From Candidatus Dadabacteria bacterium (GTDB taxonomy: Bacteria > Desulfobacterota_D > UBA1144 > Nemesobacterales > CSP1-2): 64,000 nt of DNA. The stretch covers positions 64,001 through 128,000 of the forward strand of contig CAWDVW010000002.1 of the NCBI GenBank assembly GCA_963805855.1, in the 5' to 3' direction. The translations under genes and the position numbers were made by a program. Position 1 is the stretch's first letter. Each line of letters begins with the position of its first letter. Of the stretch, positions 15,629-54,642 are shown one piece after another. The notes under the pieces were generated by a model that saw only the letters and a list, made by a program, of their open reading frames with translations, ran no database searches and was not told where the DNA came from.

Positions 15629-15941
15629 ATTTTTATCCCGGGCCCGTGATCGCATAAAATTGCCTTCGGCAATCACGAAGCATAACACTTTTTGAGATGG
15701 ATCCCGGTGCCTGCTCCACATAAAAGCCTGACGGGTCAAATATTGATATTACATGAAAAATTTAACGTTGCTCATTTCAACATTATAAATTTGAACACAC
15801 TCGGGTAAGTGAATCAATCGATGAATCGATGTGAAAAACAAAACAAAGGGGACGTGATAGTATGAGAGGTGACTCCTCGTAATCTGTTAGACTTGGATTA
15901 ATGGCAAAAGGAGTTAATCCAAAACAGAAGGAGGAATCACC

Positions 15942-17000
15942 ATGAACTATGTCGGAGTAGATCTGCACAAAAAAACATCGTTATTCTACGTAGTAGATTC
16001 CAGGTGCAGGAAACTTGATAGTAGAAATGTAACAAATACTGAAGAGGAATTAAAGGGTTACTTTGAACAGATACCTAAACCGTATATACTCGCAGTAGAA
16101 TCCACCTACAATTGGTATTTCTTCGTAGATTTAGCCGAGCGATACGCCGAGCAGGTATATTTGGCCGACACATACGAGCTTAAGGCATTTGCTAAGAGAC
16201 ATAAGAAGACAGATAAGATAGATGCCAGGCTTATAGCTACAGTATTACAAAAAGGGTTTTCACCAGCTGTAACTATCCCAGATAAACAAACTCGAGAGAT
16301 TAGGGAATTACTCCGTTACAGGATAAAACTTGTACGGGATCGTACCCGCAATATCTCTCGACTCAAATCTTTATTGGACAGGTTAGGGTATCAAAGCACA
16401 GGAGACTTTACTACATATAAACATCTAAAGGCGATTGATACAAAAGACTTACCTGCCATCTACGCCTATATTATAAGAAGGCAATGTGAGCAAATTATTG
16501 AGTTAAACAAAAGGGTAGCAGAGATAGAAGAGCACTTTAATGCTATAGCCGAGGGGGATGAAGACATGCGGAATTTACTCACGATTAAAGGGATCGGGGC
16601 TTTTTCAGCTGCGTTAATAAAGACAGAAATAATAGACATATCCCGTTTCAGGACATTTAATCGACTGTGTGCATATGCGGGGTTGGCGCCGAGAGTGAGT
16701 GCAAGTGGAGGAAGGGTTTATCATGGGCCTTTAAACAAAAATCGTAGAAAGAATCTGCAGTGGATATTATTGGAAAATGTTCTTCATTTTATTAGAGCAT
16801 TACCTAAGTCTAAAGAGAAGTTTGATAGGATAGAAAGGCGCAAGGGATACAATACAGCCAGGGTAGCATTGGCAAGAGATATGTTGAAGATCATTTATCA
16901 TGTTTTGAAAGAAAGGAGGGCGTTTTATCACAGACCAGCAATAGATAAGAGTAAAAGTGGTAGAATTAGAATCCAGTCGGTGGCGGCTACTGCACTCTAA
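15942..17000 (+). CDS. IS110-family DEDD transposase/recombinase
   Basis: GVDLH, AVES, KTDKIDA; C-terminal GIG...AYAGLAP...SG; RBS AGGAGG. Confidence 0.95.
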   Translation: MNYVGVDLHKKTSLFYVVDSRCRKLDSRNVTNTEEELKGYFEQIPKPYILAVESTYNWYFFVDLAERYAEQVYLADTYELKAFAKRHKKTDKIDARLIATVLQKGFSPAVTIPDKQTREIRELLRYRIKLVRDRTRNISRLKSLLDRLGYQSTGDFTTYKHLKAIDTKDLPAIYAYIIRRQCEQIIELNKRVAEIEEHFNAIAEGDEDMRNLLTIKGIGAFSAALIKTEIIDISRFRTFNRLCAYAGLAPRVSASGGRVYHGPLNKNRRKNLQWILLENVLHFIRALPKSKEKFDRIERRKGYNTARVALARDMLKIIYHVLKERRAFYHRPAIDKSKSGRIRIQSVAATAL

Positions 17001-49975: not shown

Positions 49976-51577
49976 ATGAAAGAAAGATTAGTGAAAATTT
50001 ATGATGTGACTCTAAGGGATGGTACGCAGGGAGAGAACATTTCATTTTCCATACACGACAAGATCCGGATAGCCTCCAAACTCGATGAGTTAGGAGTCCA
50101 TTTCATCGAAGGTGGTTGGCCGGGTTCGAACGAAAGGGACGAAGGCTTTTTTAAGCAGGCAAAAAAACTTCGACTCAGAAAATCGAAGATCACGGCGTTT
50201 GGTAGCACAAGGAGGGTAAATAAAAAACCAGGTGAAGATGAGAACATTCAAGCCTTACTCAAAGCTGAGACACCCGTAGTGACGATTGTGGGTAAGAGCT
50301 GGGATTTTCATGTGAAAGAGGCGTTGAGAATTACACTCAAAGAGAATTTGGATATAATTCATGACTCTATTCAGTACCTGAAAAAAAGAGTAGATGAAGT
50401 CTTCTTCGACGCAGAGCATTTTTTTGACGGGTATAAAAAGAATTCAAAATATGCTCTAGAAGCCATTGAGTCGGCTATAGACGCCGGGGCAGATGTTGTG
50501 GTTCTGTGTGATACAAACGGAGGAACACTTCCCTGGGAGATAGAATCAACCGTTAGGGTTGTGAATGCACAACTTCAAAATCCTCCTCTAGGCATACATA
50601 CACATAACGATGGTGAGTTAGGTGTTGCAAACACGCTCTACGCAGTTAGAGAAGGCGTTAATCAGGTTCAGGGCACTATAAATGGATATGGCGAGAGATG
50701 CGGCAACGCTAACCTATGTTCAATCATCCCGAACCTGAAGCTAAAGCTTGGCATAAAGTGCTTGGGCGACGACGAACTTAAGAAAGTTTACGAGGTATCA
50801 CACTTTATTCACGAACTTACGAATCTCCCCCCAATCAAACATCGTCCATTTGTCGGTGAAAGCGCCTTTGCTCACAAGGGAGGACTCCACGTCAGTGCAG
50901 TCATGAAAAGCGCAGAAACGTATGAGCATATAAACCCTGAGATTCTCGGCAACAGGAGGCGTGTGCTTGTCTCTGATCTTTCAGGTAGGAGCAATATAAT
51001 ATACAAGGCCAAAGAGCTTGGAATTGACTTAGACCCGGGTGATAAAGGTGTACACAAGATACTTTCCGAGCTGAAGAAGTTAGAAAATCAAGGATACGAA
51101 TTTGAGGGCGCGGATGCGTCTTTTGAATTGCTAATAAGGAAGACACTCGGTCAATACAGGAAACACTTTGAGCTCAATGGCGCCAGAATAATAGTAGAAA
51201 AGCACCGAGACGATGAGGAGCCAATCTCAGAGGCCACTGTGATGGTGCAGGTCGACGGAATAACCGAGCACACCGCAGCTATCGGGAACGGTCCTGTAAA
51301 TGCCCTCGATAACGCTCTTCGAAAAGCCCTTGAGAAGTTCTATCCCGTATTAAAGGATGTGAAACTGAAAGACTATCGCGTAAGAGTAGTTTCAAGCCAG
51401 AAAGGGACAGACGCCGTAGTAAGGGTCTTAATTGAATCCGGTGACGGAGAAAGCGATTGGAGCACAGTCGGTGTTTCAGAAAATATAGTTGAAGCAAGCT
51501 GGAAGGCCATGGTCGACAGCATCGATTATAAGCTGTTTAAGGAAGAGGCGAGAAAGACCAAAAAAGCCAGAGGGTGA
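49976..51577 (+). CDS. cimA: Citramalate synthase
   Basis: [45 protein letters not shown]; start placed at the Met downstream of the repeat. Confidence 0.92.
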
Positions 51578-51748
51578 GAATTAATCACCATACTAGAACC
51601 CGCAGCGAATCATCAAATTATAAATAGACACATCCCTAAAAAATAAAATTACCTCTATCCACACTTCGGCTTGGCCCTTCGGTTTAAGTCAAGCGCAGGT
51701 TAAGCGTGATCGGATATTGATATTTAAAAATCACGAACATATATCAAA

Positions 51749-51811
51749 CCGTGCATCCTGAGCAGAGTCGAAGGATGTTATCCCTTTTATATTTTCACGC
51801 TTCGACAGGCT
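51749..51811. repeat. REP-like CCTGAGC..GTCGAAGG / CTTCGAC..GCTCAG inverted pair, second arm interrupted by IS110
   Basis: ATCCTGAGCAGAGTCGAAGGA, then CTTCGACAGGCT; the arm resumes as CAGTGTGAACG at 53234. Confidence 0.75.
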
Positions 51812-51899
51812 GTTATGTAAAAAGTCAAGGGTTATGTTAGGGAAAACTTTAACTTTGAACAAACGAATCCCTTCGTGCTTTTTTATGTAATGTATCTCA

Positions 51900-52075
51900 T
51901 GTGTAAATAAATCCTATCTTGAATCAATCTGTTATAAACAGTCAGCTGCCTCTTTGCAGTGCTGCATTAAATTCATTAAACCACTCAAACCTGTGGCCGC
52001 ACTCTCAGTAAAACATTTTCTTTGCAGCCAGTCGATAGCGGTCCACACTTTATTGTTTGAGATTTCATAGATCCA
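51900..52075 (-). ncRNA. Candidate bridge RNA of the second IS110; boundaries approximate
   Basis: Two parallel modules (guide-CT-GCAAAGA...TGTTT-guide-AG); three of the four guides match the target or donor flanks. Confidence 0.75.
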
Positions 52076-52089
52076 GTCCCTATTACTTA

Positions 52090-53154
52090 TCAAATCAATC
52101 CATAAGCATAACTCTCCTTATTCTTCCACACGTATCTTATCCTGTTCAATAACTTCTTGGCGATCCGAACTATCGCTTTCTGCTTGGTCATCCGCCTGAT
52201 CAATTGACTAAACACATGCCCCAAAGCCGGATCTTCTCGTATCGCTACCCACGCTGCCTCTATCAGTAAGTACCGTAAATACCGGTTACGCCGAAAGCTG
52301 AGCCCCAGAGTGCTCTCCCTCTCCCCAGAACTACTTACCGATGGCACTAACCCCGCATAACTAGCAAGATCGTCTATACTCCTGAACCGACTCATATCCA
52401 TCAGTTCCCCATATAATGTCATCGCTGTTACAAAACCAACCCCTGGCACACTACGCAGATTCTTTACCTCTTCCCCAAACCCGTATTCCCGATAATACTT
52501 CCGCACCAACTTCACTACCTCTGCTAAACGCCTTCGATGACTTTCTAGCTCCTCGAGACATAGCCTAAGATAATCCCTACCCATCCCGTATGAAAACTCT
52601 AATGTCTTTAACCACCTTATAAATCCCCCAGACCAGTGACCAATCTCATCATGGCGCGGTATGACATAACCATAGAATGCTAAATACCCCTTGATCCGAT
52701 TCTTAAGCCGAGTTTGCGACTGTACCACCTTAAATCTGAGCCTGCACAATGATCGCAATTGTTGGTGAAATTCATCCGGTACATATATCCCTCTCAATGA
52801 CCCATTCTCTAGCTCTCGTGCCAGCTTACGGCTATCCACCTTGTCGGTCTTTGTCGATTTCTCCTTCTGGGTACTAGGCACATCTGCCGGATTGATTACT
52901 ATATTGTTAAACCCGTACCTCTTTAACTCCCGATCAATCCAGTACCCACAGAATCCTGCTTCATACACACTGTGATAGTTTCCTCCCGGATAACGCTTGT
53001 GCATATATCCGTACAGTTGCTCCGGTGATGGATCCATGGAGAAAGTCTTTAACTCCATGCCGTTAGTCCTGACTGTTACTTTCCAGCTCTTCTTATGCAC
53101 ATCTATGCCTAGAAAAAAATCTTGATTTGTGTAATCTATACTTTGTCTATTCAT
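52090..53154 (-). CDS. IS110-family DEDD transposase/recombinase
   Basis: GIDVH, YEAG, KTDKVDS; VPGVG...SYAGLVP...SSG. Confidence 0.95.
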   Translation of the reverse strand: MNRQSIDYTNQDFFLGIDVHKKSWKVTVRTNGMELKTFSMDPSPEQLYGYMHKRYPGGNYHSVYEAGFCGYWIDRELKRYGFNNIVINPADVPSTQKEKSTKTDKVDSRKLARELENGSLRGIYVPDEFHQQLRSLCRLRFKVVQSQTRLKNRIKGYLAFYGYVIPRHDEIGHWSGGFIRWLKTLEFSYGMGRDYLRLCLEELESHRRRLAEVVKLVRKYYREYGFGEEVKNLRSVPGVGFVTAMTLYGELMDMSRFRSIDDLASYAGLVPSVSSSGERESTLGLSFRRNRYLRYLLIEAAWVAIREDPALGHVFSQLIRRMTKQKAIVRIAKKLLNRIRYVWKNKESYAYGLI

Positions 53155-53370
53155 TACGGTTCCCTCCTTATTTTTTTCCTTTTAATTATAAGAAGGGAAC
53201 CGTTGTACCTAACCCCTTTTTAACATAATTCCTCAGTGTGAACGACTTCATTTGTTGCATTATTAATTGATAGGCAGGGTTTTCTAACCCCGCTCCCAGC
53301 CTGACCCGCAGTTCGGCGAGAATCGTATTTTGATGCCTGATCGGGGAACAGGCACTACACTCACTTAAAT

Positions 53371-54642
53371 TTATGAATTTTCGTCTTTTTCAGTTTTAAT
53401 TAGTTTCAATGCTTCATCACCCTCTTCGGGGGCAATCGGCAATCCTTGTTTGATTCTGGCATTTTCTATCTTTTCCAATGGGCTTTCGAGCTGCCTCCTT
53501 CGAGTGGTCATAAGGTTCTCGTATTCCTTCAAAGCATCCCCGATCCTCTTACCAAGCATTTCTAGTCGATAAAGGAATTCATCCCACTGTTTCTTGAAAC
53601 GCCCAAATAGGGATAGCAATTCCGCAGATGTTCTCTCAAGGGCAAAATTATCAACAGCCTGTCTGATGACTGCTAAAACAGTGATAAAATTAATCGGGGA
53701 GCAGAGTACGACCTTATTTCTTAAAGCGTTATCAAAAATCGTGCTATCCTGCTCATGGATAAAACCATAGATCTGCTCATTGGGAATAAATAGGATCACG
53801 CAGTCGACAGTGTTTTGTTCAGGATCAATATACTCGCGGGTTGTCACTTCTTTGATCCGCGCCCTCACATCTCTTAAGAAATCATTTCTGAATTTTAATC
53901 TTTCAGTGTCTGACGCTGCTTCTAAAAACTTCATGTAGTTATCTAAAGGGAATTTAACATCCATGTTAAGTCTCAGGCCCCTGGGCAAAAGGAAGGTGAA
54001 ATCCGGTCTCGATCCCCCACCCTCTATGGACTTTTGCTTTAAATAATTAACATTCTCGATAAAGCCCGCTAAATTTAACACGTCCTCCGCCATACGCTCA
54101 CCCCATTGGCCCCTTGCCTTTGAACTGGCAAGCGCCTCACGAATTGTACTTGTCACTTTCATTAATGAAGTAGTCTGCTCACTTGCCGTTTTTAGCTGAC
54201 TGGCGAGCTCACCAAACTTCTCAACCCGATCCTTCTCGAGATCCTTCATCAGCGTCGAAACATTTTCAAGCTCCTTTGACATACGTTGCAATTGCTGATC
54301 GATCAATCCTTTCTTCGCATCCAATTCCTTAACAGTCGTCTCGCGTTCAGGCTCCAATGTCGCCTTGGCTAATTTCAGGAATTCTTCGGTCGATTTCGAC
54401 AATGCATCTAAAGATAAACTGCCAAAACTAGCCTTTATATTTTCGATAACAGTATTCAAGTTCTCCCGTCGTTGACCCTCACTTTCAGCATACAGCTCTT
54501 CCGCGAGTTCCTTTCCAGTCTTAGCCTGTATCACCCTCAGAATTAAGGCTAGGCCAAAACCTATAAGAATGCCGACTACAACCGCAATAAGGATTGGTAG
54601 CCAATTAATAAGATCTCCAGATAACTTAGCTACATCTAGCAT
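53371..54642 (-). CDS. rmuC: DNA recombination protein RmuC
   Basis: N-terminal TM, coiled coil, RGQWGE, RPD, DVKFPL, LFIPNE. Confidence 0.93.
   Translation of the reverse strand: MLDVAKLSGDLINWLPILIAVVVGILIGFGLALILRVIQAKTGKELAEELYAESEGQRRENLNTVIENIKASFGSLSLDALSKSTEEFLKLAKATLEPERETTVKELDAKKGLIDQQLQRMSKELENVSTLMKDLEKDRVEKFGELASQLKTASEQTTSLMKVTSTIREALASSKARGQWGERMAEDVLNLAGFIENVNYLKQKSIEGGGSRPDFTFLLPRGLRLNMDVKFPLDNYMKFLEAASDTERLKFRNDFLRDVRARIKEVTTREYIDPEQNTVDCVILFIPNEQIYGFIHEQDSTIFDNALRNKVVLCSPINFITVLAVIRQAVDNFALERTSAELLSLFGRFKKQWDEFLYRLEMLGKRIGDALKEYENLMTTRRRQLESPLEKIENARIKQGLPIAPEEGDEALKLIKTEKDENS

Follow-up and report, generated by a model that had tools for sequence, protein, structure and literature searches.

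A predicted RNA-guided IS1111-type element inserted in REP-like hairpin repeats of a Candidatus Dadabacteria genome

Introduction

Within the IS110 family of insertion sequences (IS), two features set the IS1111 group apart from the IS110 group: subterminal inverted repeats and a long non-coding region 3′ of the transposase gene (tnp) (PMC11187229, PMC11208160). In the parts used here of the study by Siddiquee et al. 2024 (PMC11187229), the seekRNAs of IS1111 elements lie 3′ of tnp, and their match to the top strand of the target is found 5′ of the match to the bottom strand. The corresponding parts of Durrant et al. 2024 (PMC11208160), which combine experiments on IS621 with six predicted bridge RNAs including those of ISPpu10 and ISPa11, place the IS1111 bridge RNA in the right end, with its donor nucleotides in a multi-loop. 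Here we describe a relative of these elements in a 64,000-nucleotide (nt) stretch of a Candidatus Dadabacteria genome (the window; assembly GCA_963805855.1, contig CAWDVW010000002.1), which is very probably an active or recently active IS1111-type element whose DEDD recombinase is directed by an RNA from its own 3′ non-coding region. Coordinates are window positions (1–64,000), and the element and its RNA are read on the minus strand.

Elements of the IS110 family that target repetitive extragenic palindromic (REP) sequences were reportedly described by Tobes and Pareja in 2006. Like IS621 in Escherichia coli REPs and ISPpu9/ISPpu10 in Pseudomonas putida (PMC12288879), the element described here inserts orientation-specifically at one position of a hairpin repeat and is present in several copies per genome; it differs from them in repeat family and host. 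With ISEc11, ISPa11, ISKpn4 and ISPst6 it shares a DEDD transposase in the range of ~340–350 amino acids with a GL-P----SG motif, and the likeness to the seekRNA elements extends to the ends, which have short extensions outside subterminal inverted repeats, to the long non-coding region 3′ of tnp, to two short matches to opposite target strands, of which the top-strand one lies 5′ and which overlap where the element inserts, to natural retargeting among relatives, and to the lack of a duplication beyond the shared core (PMC11187229). As read here, it also resembles the bridge RNA systems in having one RNA with target and donor parts, half-sites read on opposite strands and a 2-nt core, and the IS1111-type bridge RNAs in its right-end location and in donor nucleotides outside a simple internal loop (PMC11208160). 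It differs from IS621, whose RNA lies in the left end and has internal loops for both guide pairs (PMC11208160); the IS621 protein is also a very distant match. These sources have already reported the mechanism, as well as REP targeting, natural retargeting and the position of the RNA 3′ of tnp in elements of IS1111 type (PMC11187229, PMC11208160, PMC12288879). One aspect is modestly new, namely the covariation evidence for donor guides that flank a stem-loop in the long RNA.

Results

An intact IS1111-type element is present in three copies at the same site

The gene and the two ends of the element are as follows.

52090–53154, minus strand: DEDD transposase/recombinase gene of 354 amino acids, identified by Pfam, NCBIfam and invariant catalytic residues.
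53216–53231, minus strand: left end, in which an extension of 3 nt (GAA) precedes the subterminal inverted repeat TTATGTTAAAAAG.
51812–51828, minus strand: right end, a 1-nt extension followed by the subterminal inverted repeat TTATGTAAAAAG (51813–51824).

The transposase matched the Pfam domains PF01548 (E 1.1e-16) and PF02371 (E 1.2e-22), and it scored 216.8 bits against the NCBIfam model NF033542, 'IS110 family RNA-guided transposase', which has a cut-off of 140. Residues D18, E65, D104 and D107 are shared by all 35 homologues that we aligned (45–90% identity), and they line up with the catalytic motifs of ISCro4 in a PDB search. At residues 268–277, GLVPSVSSSG fits GL-P----S(t)G, the motif given for IS1111-type transposases (PMC11187229). 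The protein scored 87 bits against IS5075/IS4321 over residues 69–343, where it is ~29% identical to them, and 19.6–26.5 bits against IS621/ISCro4, scores that come from different programs and databases; IS621 and ISCro4 were matched marginally, with E 0.0046 and 3.9e-5, respectively. The best match among 72,556 plasmid records reached 36% identity.

Because similarity ends at identical bases in all three genomic copies, we set the element to 51812–53231 (1420 bp), with the CT core at both junctions (51810–51811 and 53232–53233). Besides the window copy, the 3.11-Mb genome (9 contigs) carries copies at C7:152298–153735 and C7:641055–642494. All three encode the same transposase sequence. Alignment of the window copy with the other two showed 3 substitutions and one 1-nt indel, a deletion within the leader of the window copy. 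When GAA plus TTATGTTAAAAAG was compared with the reverse-complemented right end, G plus TTATGT-AAAAAG, the two ends shared 12 matching bases with one 1-nt gap. The anchors of the ends are conserved among homologues. In the window element the left end contains a −10-like TATGTT at 53222–53227, and the inverted repeat of the right end is overlapped by a −35-like TTGACT (51823–51828). The non-coding regions measure 278 nt 3′ of tnp (51812–52089) and 77 nt 5′ of it (53155–53231). The element is an intact member of the IS110 family and, more precisely, of IS1111 type. A preliminary description of this DNA, made from its letters alone, had already called it an intact IS110-family element; the domains, the NF033542 score and the catalytic residues bear this out, and the strings on which that description relied were all located where it had placed them.

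In window orientation, the junction flanks read TTCGACAGG-CT (51801–51811) and CT-CAGTG (53232–53238) at the window copy, TTCGACAGG-CT and CT-CAGTA at copy 2, and TTCGACTGG-CT and CT-CAGTG at copy 3. All three copies therefore sit at the identical CT of TTCGACNGG-CT-CAGTR in a single orientation, and only the 2-nt core is present at both junctions. The preliminary description had proposed comparing the insertion sites of further copies, and here the three agree in site, position and orientation.

The target is the loop of a REP-like hairpin repeat

The shared insertion site, TTCGAC(A/T)GG-CT-CAGT(G/A), corresponds to the loop of a REP-like hairpin repeat. One unit is interrupted by the window copy and a second, complete one lies beside it.

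51794–51811, plus strand: left part of the interrupted REP-like unit, the arm TTCACGC followed by the loop TTCGACAGG-CT, colinear with unoccupied units such as tttcacatTTCGACACGCTCAGTGtgaacgg.
53232–53244, plus strand: right part of the interrupted unit, CT-CA, the arm GTGTGAA and CG, colinear with unoccupied units.
51756–51779, minus strand: partner unit, REP-like, intact and oppositely oriented, which reads CATCC-TTCGACTCTGCTCA-GGATG on the minus strand (hairpin scan, C2 minus 617381).

The strict loop motif TTCGAY-N2-4-CTCA occurred 168 times in the genome compared with 36.4 in shuffles, and with a flanking stem of at least 4 bp it occurred 39 times compared with 0.2. The stems vary in a compensatory manner (CATCC/GGATG in 9 units, CACAC/GTGTG in 8, CACCC/GGGTG in 6) and are followed by a conserved ANCGG tail. 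We summarize the unit as CAYNC-TTCGAY-N2-4-CTCA-GNRTG-ANCGG, in which the target comprises the loop and the first two bases of the 3′ arm. Excision in silico of the element together with one CT restored TTCACGC-TTCGACAGGCTCA-GTGTGAA-CG, colinear with unoccupied units, and the two arms of this unit pair over 7 bp including one G-T. The site of copy 3 is a variant unit with the arms GCAC/GTGC, and that of copy 2 has the loop and 3′ side without pairing arms. The partner repeat, which had been placed at about 51756–51776, proved to be a complete unit in opposite orientation at 51756–51779, where it reads catCCTGAGCagaGTCGAAGGatg.

The same preliminary description had spoken of a multicopy safe-harbour repeat. 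A REP-like hairpin repeat does hold all copies, but the phrase overstates the supply of sites: among unoccupied genomic sites, none matched the guide-encoded 15-mer (see below) with 0–1 mismatches, 4 did with 2 (3.2 in shuffles) and 54 with 3 (39.6 in shuffles). Searched against the genome, the occupied-site 16-mer gave 0 exact matches, 3 with at most 1 mismatch and 15 with at most 2. The three occupied sites themselves have 1–2 mismatches each to the guides, one of which is a U-G wobble position.

Two further observations concern repeats of this genome and its relatives. Genome G000 contains ten matches to PF01797 (Y1 transposase family), two of them with in-frame stops, and is rich in REP/IS200-type systems. 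Just outside the element, at 53269–53294, lies a motif of ~26 nt (ataggcagggttttctaaccccgctc) that is 96–100% identical in many related genomes (G006, G007, G010, G012, G014) and probably represents another small hairpin repeat family.

Module 1 of the 3′ RNA matches the insertion site and covaries with it

We assign the following features to the target side of the predicted 3′ non-coding RNA.

51991–52048, minus strand: module 1, target-binding loop, in which the stem P1 (GUGUGG-A-CCGC/GCGG-CCACA) surrounds an internal loop and a small inner hairpin (RNAalifold, pair counts).
52026–52035, minus strand: 5′ target guide UCGACUGGCU, complementary to the element-sense core and right flank (AG-CCAGTCGA).
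52004–52010, minus strand: 3′ target guide UACUGAG, identical to the element-sense left flank and core and hence able to pair with the other strand.

In forward-strand letters, AGCCAGTCGA at 52026–52035 is the reverse complement of TCGACTGGCT, CTCAGTA at 52004–52010 is that of TACTGAG, and the P1 strands are GCGGTCCAC (52038–52046) and GTGGCCGC (51993–52000). The 5′ guide is exact over 10 nt to the flank of copy 3 and the 3′ guide over 7 nt to that of copy 2.

To follow these features through the family, we collected homologue loci from genome contigs (11) and metagenome contigs (40). The module-1 motif GACCGY ... UGCGGC was found in 37 loci including the genome's own copies, which yielded 30 distinct guide pairs. 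Read in RNA sense, the module had the same layout in every case: one P1 strand, then a 5′ guide that ends in CU, the small hairpin, a 3′ guide that ends in AG and the other P1 strand. When each 5′ guide was compared with the reverse complement of core and right flank at its own locus, the mean exact run was 7.44 nt over 25 distinct elements, compared with 3.79 ± 0.25 after permutation (0 of 5000 permutations); 3′ guides compared with left flank and core gave 6.68 nt over 22 elements, compared with 4.33 ± 0.25 (0 of 5000), although both sets of figures overstate independence because the homologues are interrelated.

The guides are unrelated in sequence between lineages, as illustrated by L009 (CCCCCUUCU with flank AGAAGGGGG), L015 (UGAGUCCGCU with AGCGGACTCA) and L012 (UUUCCCGUAGA with TTTCCCATAGA). 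Closer relatives show retargeting inside the same repeat family: L023 (86% amino acid identity) carries the guide TCGACGGGCT with the flank TTCGACGGGCT, and L022 (89%) the 3′ guide UCCUGAG with the flank CATCCTGAG. A variant contig of run X7 has guide positions 52028 and 52031 changed. These natural variants suggest that the element may be reprogrammable. One metagenome locus, L020, whose transposase is 100% identical, has the left flank of genome copy 2 and a different right flank (AG-CTCAGTCGAAGCG…); this mixture could have arisen in a related strain by recombination of one copy with another, or could be a chimeric assembly.

The helices of the RNA were examined on an alignment of 28 sequences (A1), from which L011, with a long insert, and duplicates were left out. 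By RNAalifold and pair counts, 95.9% of 532 cells in P1 and in a second stem-loop, P2, were paired, with changes on both sides in 11 of 19 pairs; 0 of 500 shuffles reached this, and slid-pairing controls gave 25–56% paired. P1 by itself was 97.2% paired across the 28 sequences, with both-side changes in 4 of its 9 pairs. In folds of individual sequences by minimum free energy (MFE), the small hairpin between both guides appeared in nearly all of them, with only 3 bp in the window element. The alignment thus supplies the fold and covariation analysis across homologues that the preliminary description had called for, and its proposal of a 3′ guide RNA whose first module carries both target guides within a closing stem holds up. 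With P1 covarying and the guides tracking their flanks, comparative sequence analysis identifies module 1 as a genuine target-binding loop.

We propose that P1 would hold the internal loop open, so that guide 1 could pair with the core and right flank on one DNA strand and guide 2 with the left flank and core on the opposite strand. Jointly, the two guides spell TCGACTGG-CT-CAGTA, that is, the loop and first stem bases of the REP-like repeat, and because the guides spell the repeat loop the element would be expected to insert at that CT in one orientation.

One could suppose that the guide-like strings are a captured or decayed REP-like copy in the non-coding region and that the protein picks its site by recognising the hairpin. 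The target is indeed a hairpin repeat, with 39 copies that have the flanking stem, and module 1 is itself a stem enclosing a TCGACNGGCT-like sequence. However, the RNA halves lie in opposite sense with a hairpin between them, unlike the arrangement of the repeat unit; homologues that sit between unrelated, non-REP sequences show the same architecture, each with guides to its own flanks; and one of the three insertion sites, that of copy 2, is without hairpin arms. We regard this origin as very improbable.

Segments flanking the stem-loop P2 are candidate donor guides

The donor side of the RNA comprises the following features.

51967–51980, minus strand: candidate 5′ donor guide (UUUAAUGAAUUUAA), single-stranded, directly 5′ of P2; its equivalents in homologues complement the left-end extension.
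51938–51966, minus strand: stem-loop P2 (UGCAGC-ACUGC-loop-GCAG-C-UGA-CUGU), a scaffold and not a guide, supported by covariation.
51929–51935, minus strand: candidate 3′ donor guide AUAACAG, which has the sequence of the element-sense right end and core and is complementary to CTGTTAT.
51921–51928, minus strand: conserved tail AUUGAUUC (consensus R-UUGAUU-Y), which follows the 3′ donor guide and is conserved in alignment A1.

Helix P2 (UGCAGC...CUGU), which encloses a variable hairpin, was 94.6% paired, with changes on both sides in 7 of 10 pairs; its covariation takes the forms GCAG/CUGY (16 sequences), GCGG/CCGY (11) and GCGA/UCGU (3). The enclosed hairpin is not conserved in sequence and reads UCCUCU...AGAGGA in most homologues. 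In the window element the CU at 51958–51959 is base-paired inside it, so this CT is not a left donor guide, and GCAAAGAG is mostly its loop. Two earlier proposals thus have to be given up: the two modules are not parallel in sharing CT-GCAAAGA, which is a coincidence, and the left guide of module 2 is not the CT core but more likely the segment at 51967–51980. We also considered the local palindrome CUGUU-N3-AACAG as a hairpin and rejected it, as CUGU covaries with the upstream GCAG and AACAG stays fixed.

On the 3′ side, AUAACAG was invariant in 28 of 28 aligned homologues, and the right end read CATAAC-AG in nearly all. In L078 (46% amino acid identity), module 2 (CAUAGCAG) and the right end (CATAGCAG) have both changed to ATAGCAG. 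The proposed match between AUAACAG at 51929–51935 and the right end holds in the window element. On the 5′ side, the last 6–10 nt of the linker preceding P2 complement the left-end extension across homologues: ACUUCU with AG|AAGT (L027, L029, L030), AUAUCU with AG|ATAT (many loci), UUAUCU with AG|ATAA (L052), AUACAG with CTGTAT (L010), AUAAUG with ACATTAT (L024), GGAUCU with AG|ACCC (L078, 5 of 6 positions) and GGAU with ATCC (L040). Over 16 distinct pairs of interrelated homologues, the mean run was 5.0 nt compared with 3.69 ± 0.28 after permutation (0 of 5000); L032 was not counted, as its register could not be set. In some lineages the 5′ donor guide continues through the core (NNNNCU-UGCRGC). 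In the window lineage (the genome's own copies, L022, L023, L024) and in L010, L013, L015 and L040, the 2–3 nt beside P2 are unpaired with the core.

On these comparisons, the segments flanking P2 are probably donor guides, and they may well read the joined ends of an excised circle, the upstream strand by its match to the left-end extension and the downstream AUAACAG by its match to right end and core. This would agree with the parts of PMC11208160 in which the donor-binding nucleotides of IS1111 bridge RNAs lie outside a simple internal loop. Relative to those bridge RNAs, the donor segments described here differ in being single strands that flank a stem-loop, without a conserved closing helix, and in a 5′ segment that in the window sub-lineage stops short of the core. 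A helix between linker and conserved tail formed in the window element only (UGAAUU/GAUUCA) and was not conserved across 30 sequences (mean z −0.13), and the conserved tail R-UUGAUU-Y had no conserved pairing partner in the aligned homologues. The asymmetric donor loop of the preliminary description was right as regards the asymmetry of the donor side in the window element, but this asymmetry concerns another segment.

Three points tell against donor guides. AUAACAG and the right end are near-invariant, which fits a guide but is uninformative, so that support on this side comes from one compensatory event, in L078. In the window element only AAUU and one U-G wobble (4–5 nt) pair with the left-end extension, and the core is missed. 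Finally, an 82-nt seekRNA of ISEc11 with target matches alone supported transposition (PMC11187229), and because such a short form sufficed, module 2 may be dispensable.

These points bear on a rival reading, in which only module 1 guides, the recombinase knows the ends by their subterminal inverted repeats, and P2 with its flanks is a scaffold for protein binding or processing whose end matches arose incidentally, for instance when part of the right end was duplicated. Apart from the sufficiency of the target-only ISEc11 seekRNA, in a study whose parts used here leave the role of the long form unresolved (PMC11187229), and the weak 5′ donor match of the window element, it draws on the 3′ strand of module 2, UGACUGUUUAUAACAG, which by eye resembles the right end TTGACTTTTTACATAACAG beyond the 7-mer, and on a deletion in L077 between exactly these stretches, the UGACUGUUUAUAACAG-type sequence and the right end. 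Against it, the linker 5′ of P2 tracks the left-end extension in ~10 extension classes, AUAACAG and the right end change jointly in L078, P2 covaries independently of an invariant right end, and Durrant et al. describe donor-complementary nucleotides in IS1111 bridge RNAs (PMC11208160). We consider a module 1-only system rather unlikely.

L077 (G004:C68, 84% amino acid identity) is a curious case in itself. In the region 3′ of its transposase gene, a deletion fuses module 2 straight to the right end (…GUGCA-TTGACTTTTTACATAACAG), and this deletion falls between two stretches that resemble each other.

Returning to the donor-guide interpretation, we tentatively suggest that the long 3′ RNA of this clade, unlike the short ISEc11 seekRNA, carries genuine single-stranded donor guides on either side of a stem-loop, that their reach into the core varies by lineage, and that the window lineage and several others have lost the 5′ core pairing. 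The long RNA differs from those of the seekRNA elements in covarying with the element's own ends; the parts of PMC11187229 considered here assign the long form no such role.

Leader, predicted junction promoter and activity of the element

The leader of the transposase gene carries one structured feature.

53156–53203, minus strand: hairpin in the 5′ untranslated region (5′-UTR) with a 16-bp stem, which buries the Shine-Dalgarno sequence AAGGAGG of the transposase gene.

The hairpin folds with −24.6 kcal/mol (z −5.2), and 0 of 200 shuffles folded as well; analogous inverted repeats are seen by eye in homologue leaders. It would hide the ribosome-binding site. A consensus scan of the integrated copy found no promoter for tnp or the RNA. 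Were the ends joined, TTGACT of the right end and TATGTT of the left end would be separated by a spacer of 17 nt (hand count) and would form a junction promoter of the kind described for the IS110/IS1111 family (PMC11187229; PMC12288879). Circularisation could in this way switch on both the transposase and the RNA, which the recombinase would bind.

In the metatranscriptome runs X17 and X18 we found 4 short contigs, all inside tnp at 52272–52811, which may stem from DNA carry-over. In a contig from the RNA library of run X17, the flank of copy 2 (…CAGGCAGTTCGAC) runs straight into the tnp interior at 52692, with 4 differences; this contig may represent a truncated copy in a related strain.

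Several results weigh against an active, RNA-guided element. The X17 and X18 contigs leave the non-coding RNA region uncovered; they are informative neither way and lend RNA production no support. Single-sequence folds of the 3′ region were no better than shuffles (z 0.30 and z −0.90), the MFE fold of the latter differing from the comparative structure, and a search of Rfam 15 over 51000–54000 at E up to 1 gave no match. An empty site of the element locus was not recovered in 30 related genomes, in which the flanking genes lie on different contigs or, in G007, 1256 bp apart.

A rival reading is a dead relic, whose copies persist merely as genomic repeats and whose RNA no longer functions. Such a relic would account for the DNA runs X1 and X7, in which there was no joint across the element that would mark an empty site, no excision joint and no circle junction, and for the 1-nt leader deletion of the window copy. 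But the three copies encode identical, intact proteins and differ at only 4 nucleotide positions, the catalytic residues are in place, and metagenome contigs and runs contain more insertion contexts and guide variants (L020; the X7 variant at 52028/52031). A relic thus appears quite improbable to us, and an active or recently active element remains our favoured interpretation.

Other IS110-family elements

The window contains a second, unrelated IS110-family element at 15942–17000 (plus strand), with ends near 15866 and 17210, a 352-amino-acid transposase (NF033542, 226 bits), the inverted repeats GAGGTGACTCCTC / GAGGAGTCACCT and a 3′ non-coding region of ~230 nt; it adjoins a tRNA-like sequence on the other strand. 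A further member of the family lies at C7:605295–606440.

Discussion

Relatives of the element were found mostly in metagenome-assembled genomes of Ignavibacteria, Bacteroidota and Calditrichaeota and in metagenomes from sediment or marsh. Within the phylum of the host, a match at E 1e-60 or better was present in 3 of 120 genomes, the window genome included. The clade is far from the studied enterobacterial and pseudomonad elements, with 29–36% protein identity.

With three copies in one genome and ~30 homologues with readable guides, the element offers a well-resolved natural example of an IS110/IS1111 system that is, in our interpretation, RNA-guided, and its guide-flank pairs make up a small natural data set on retargeting. 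The covariation of the linker with the left-end extension bears on the question of what the longer form of the RNA does in IS1111 elements. If the RNA does contain donor guides whose reach into the core varies by lineage, the clade would provide a natural series with which to approach the role of the 'long seekRNA', and whether asymmetric donor pairing tunes excision versus insertion.

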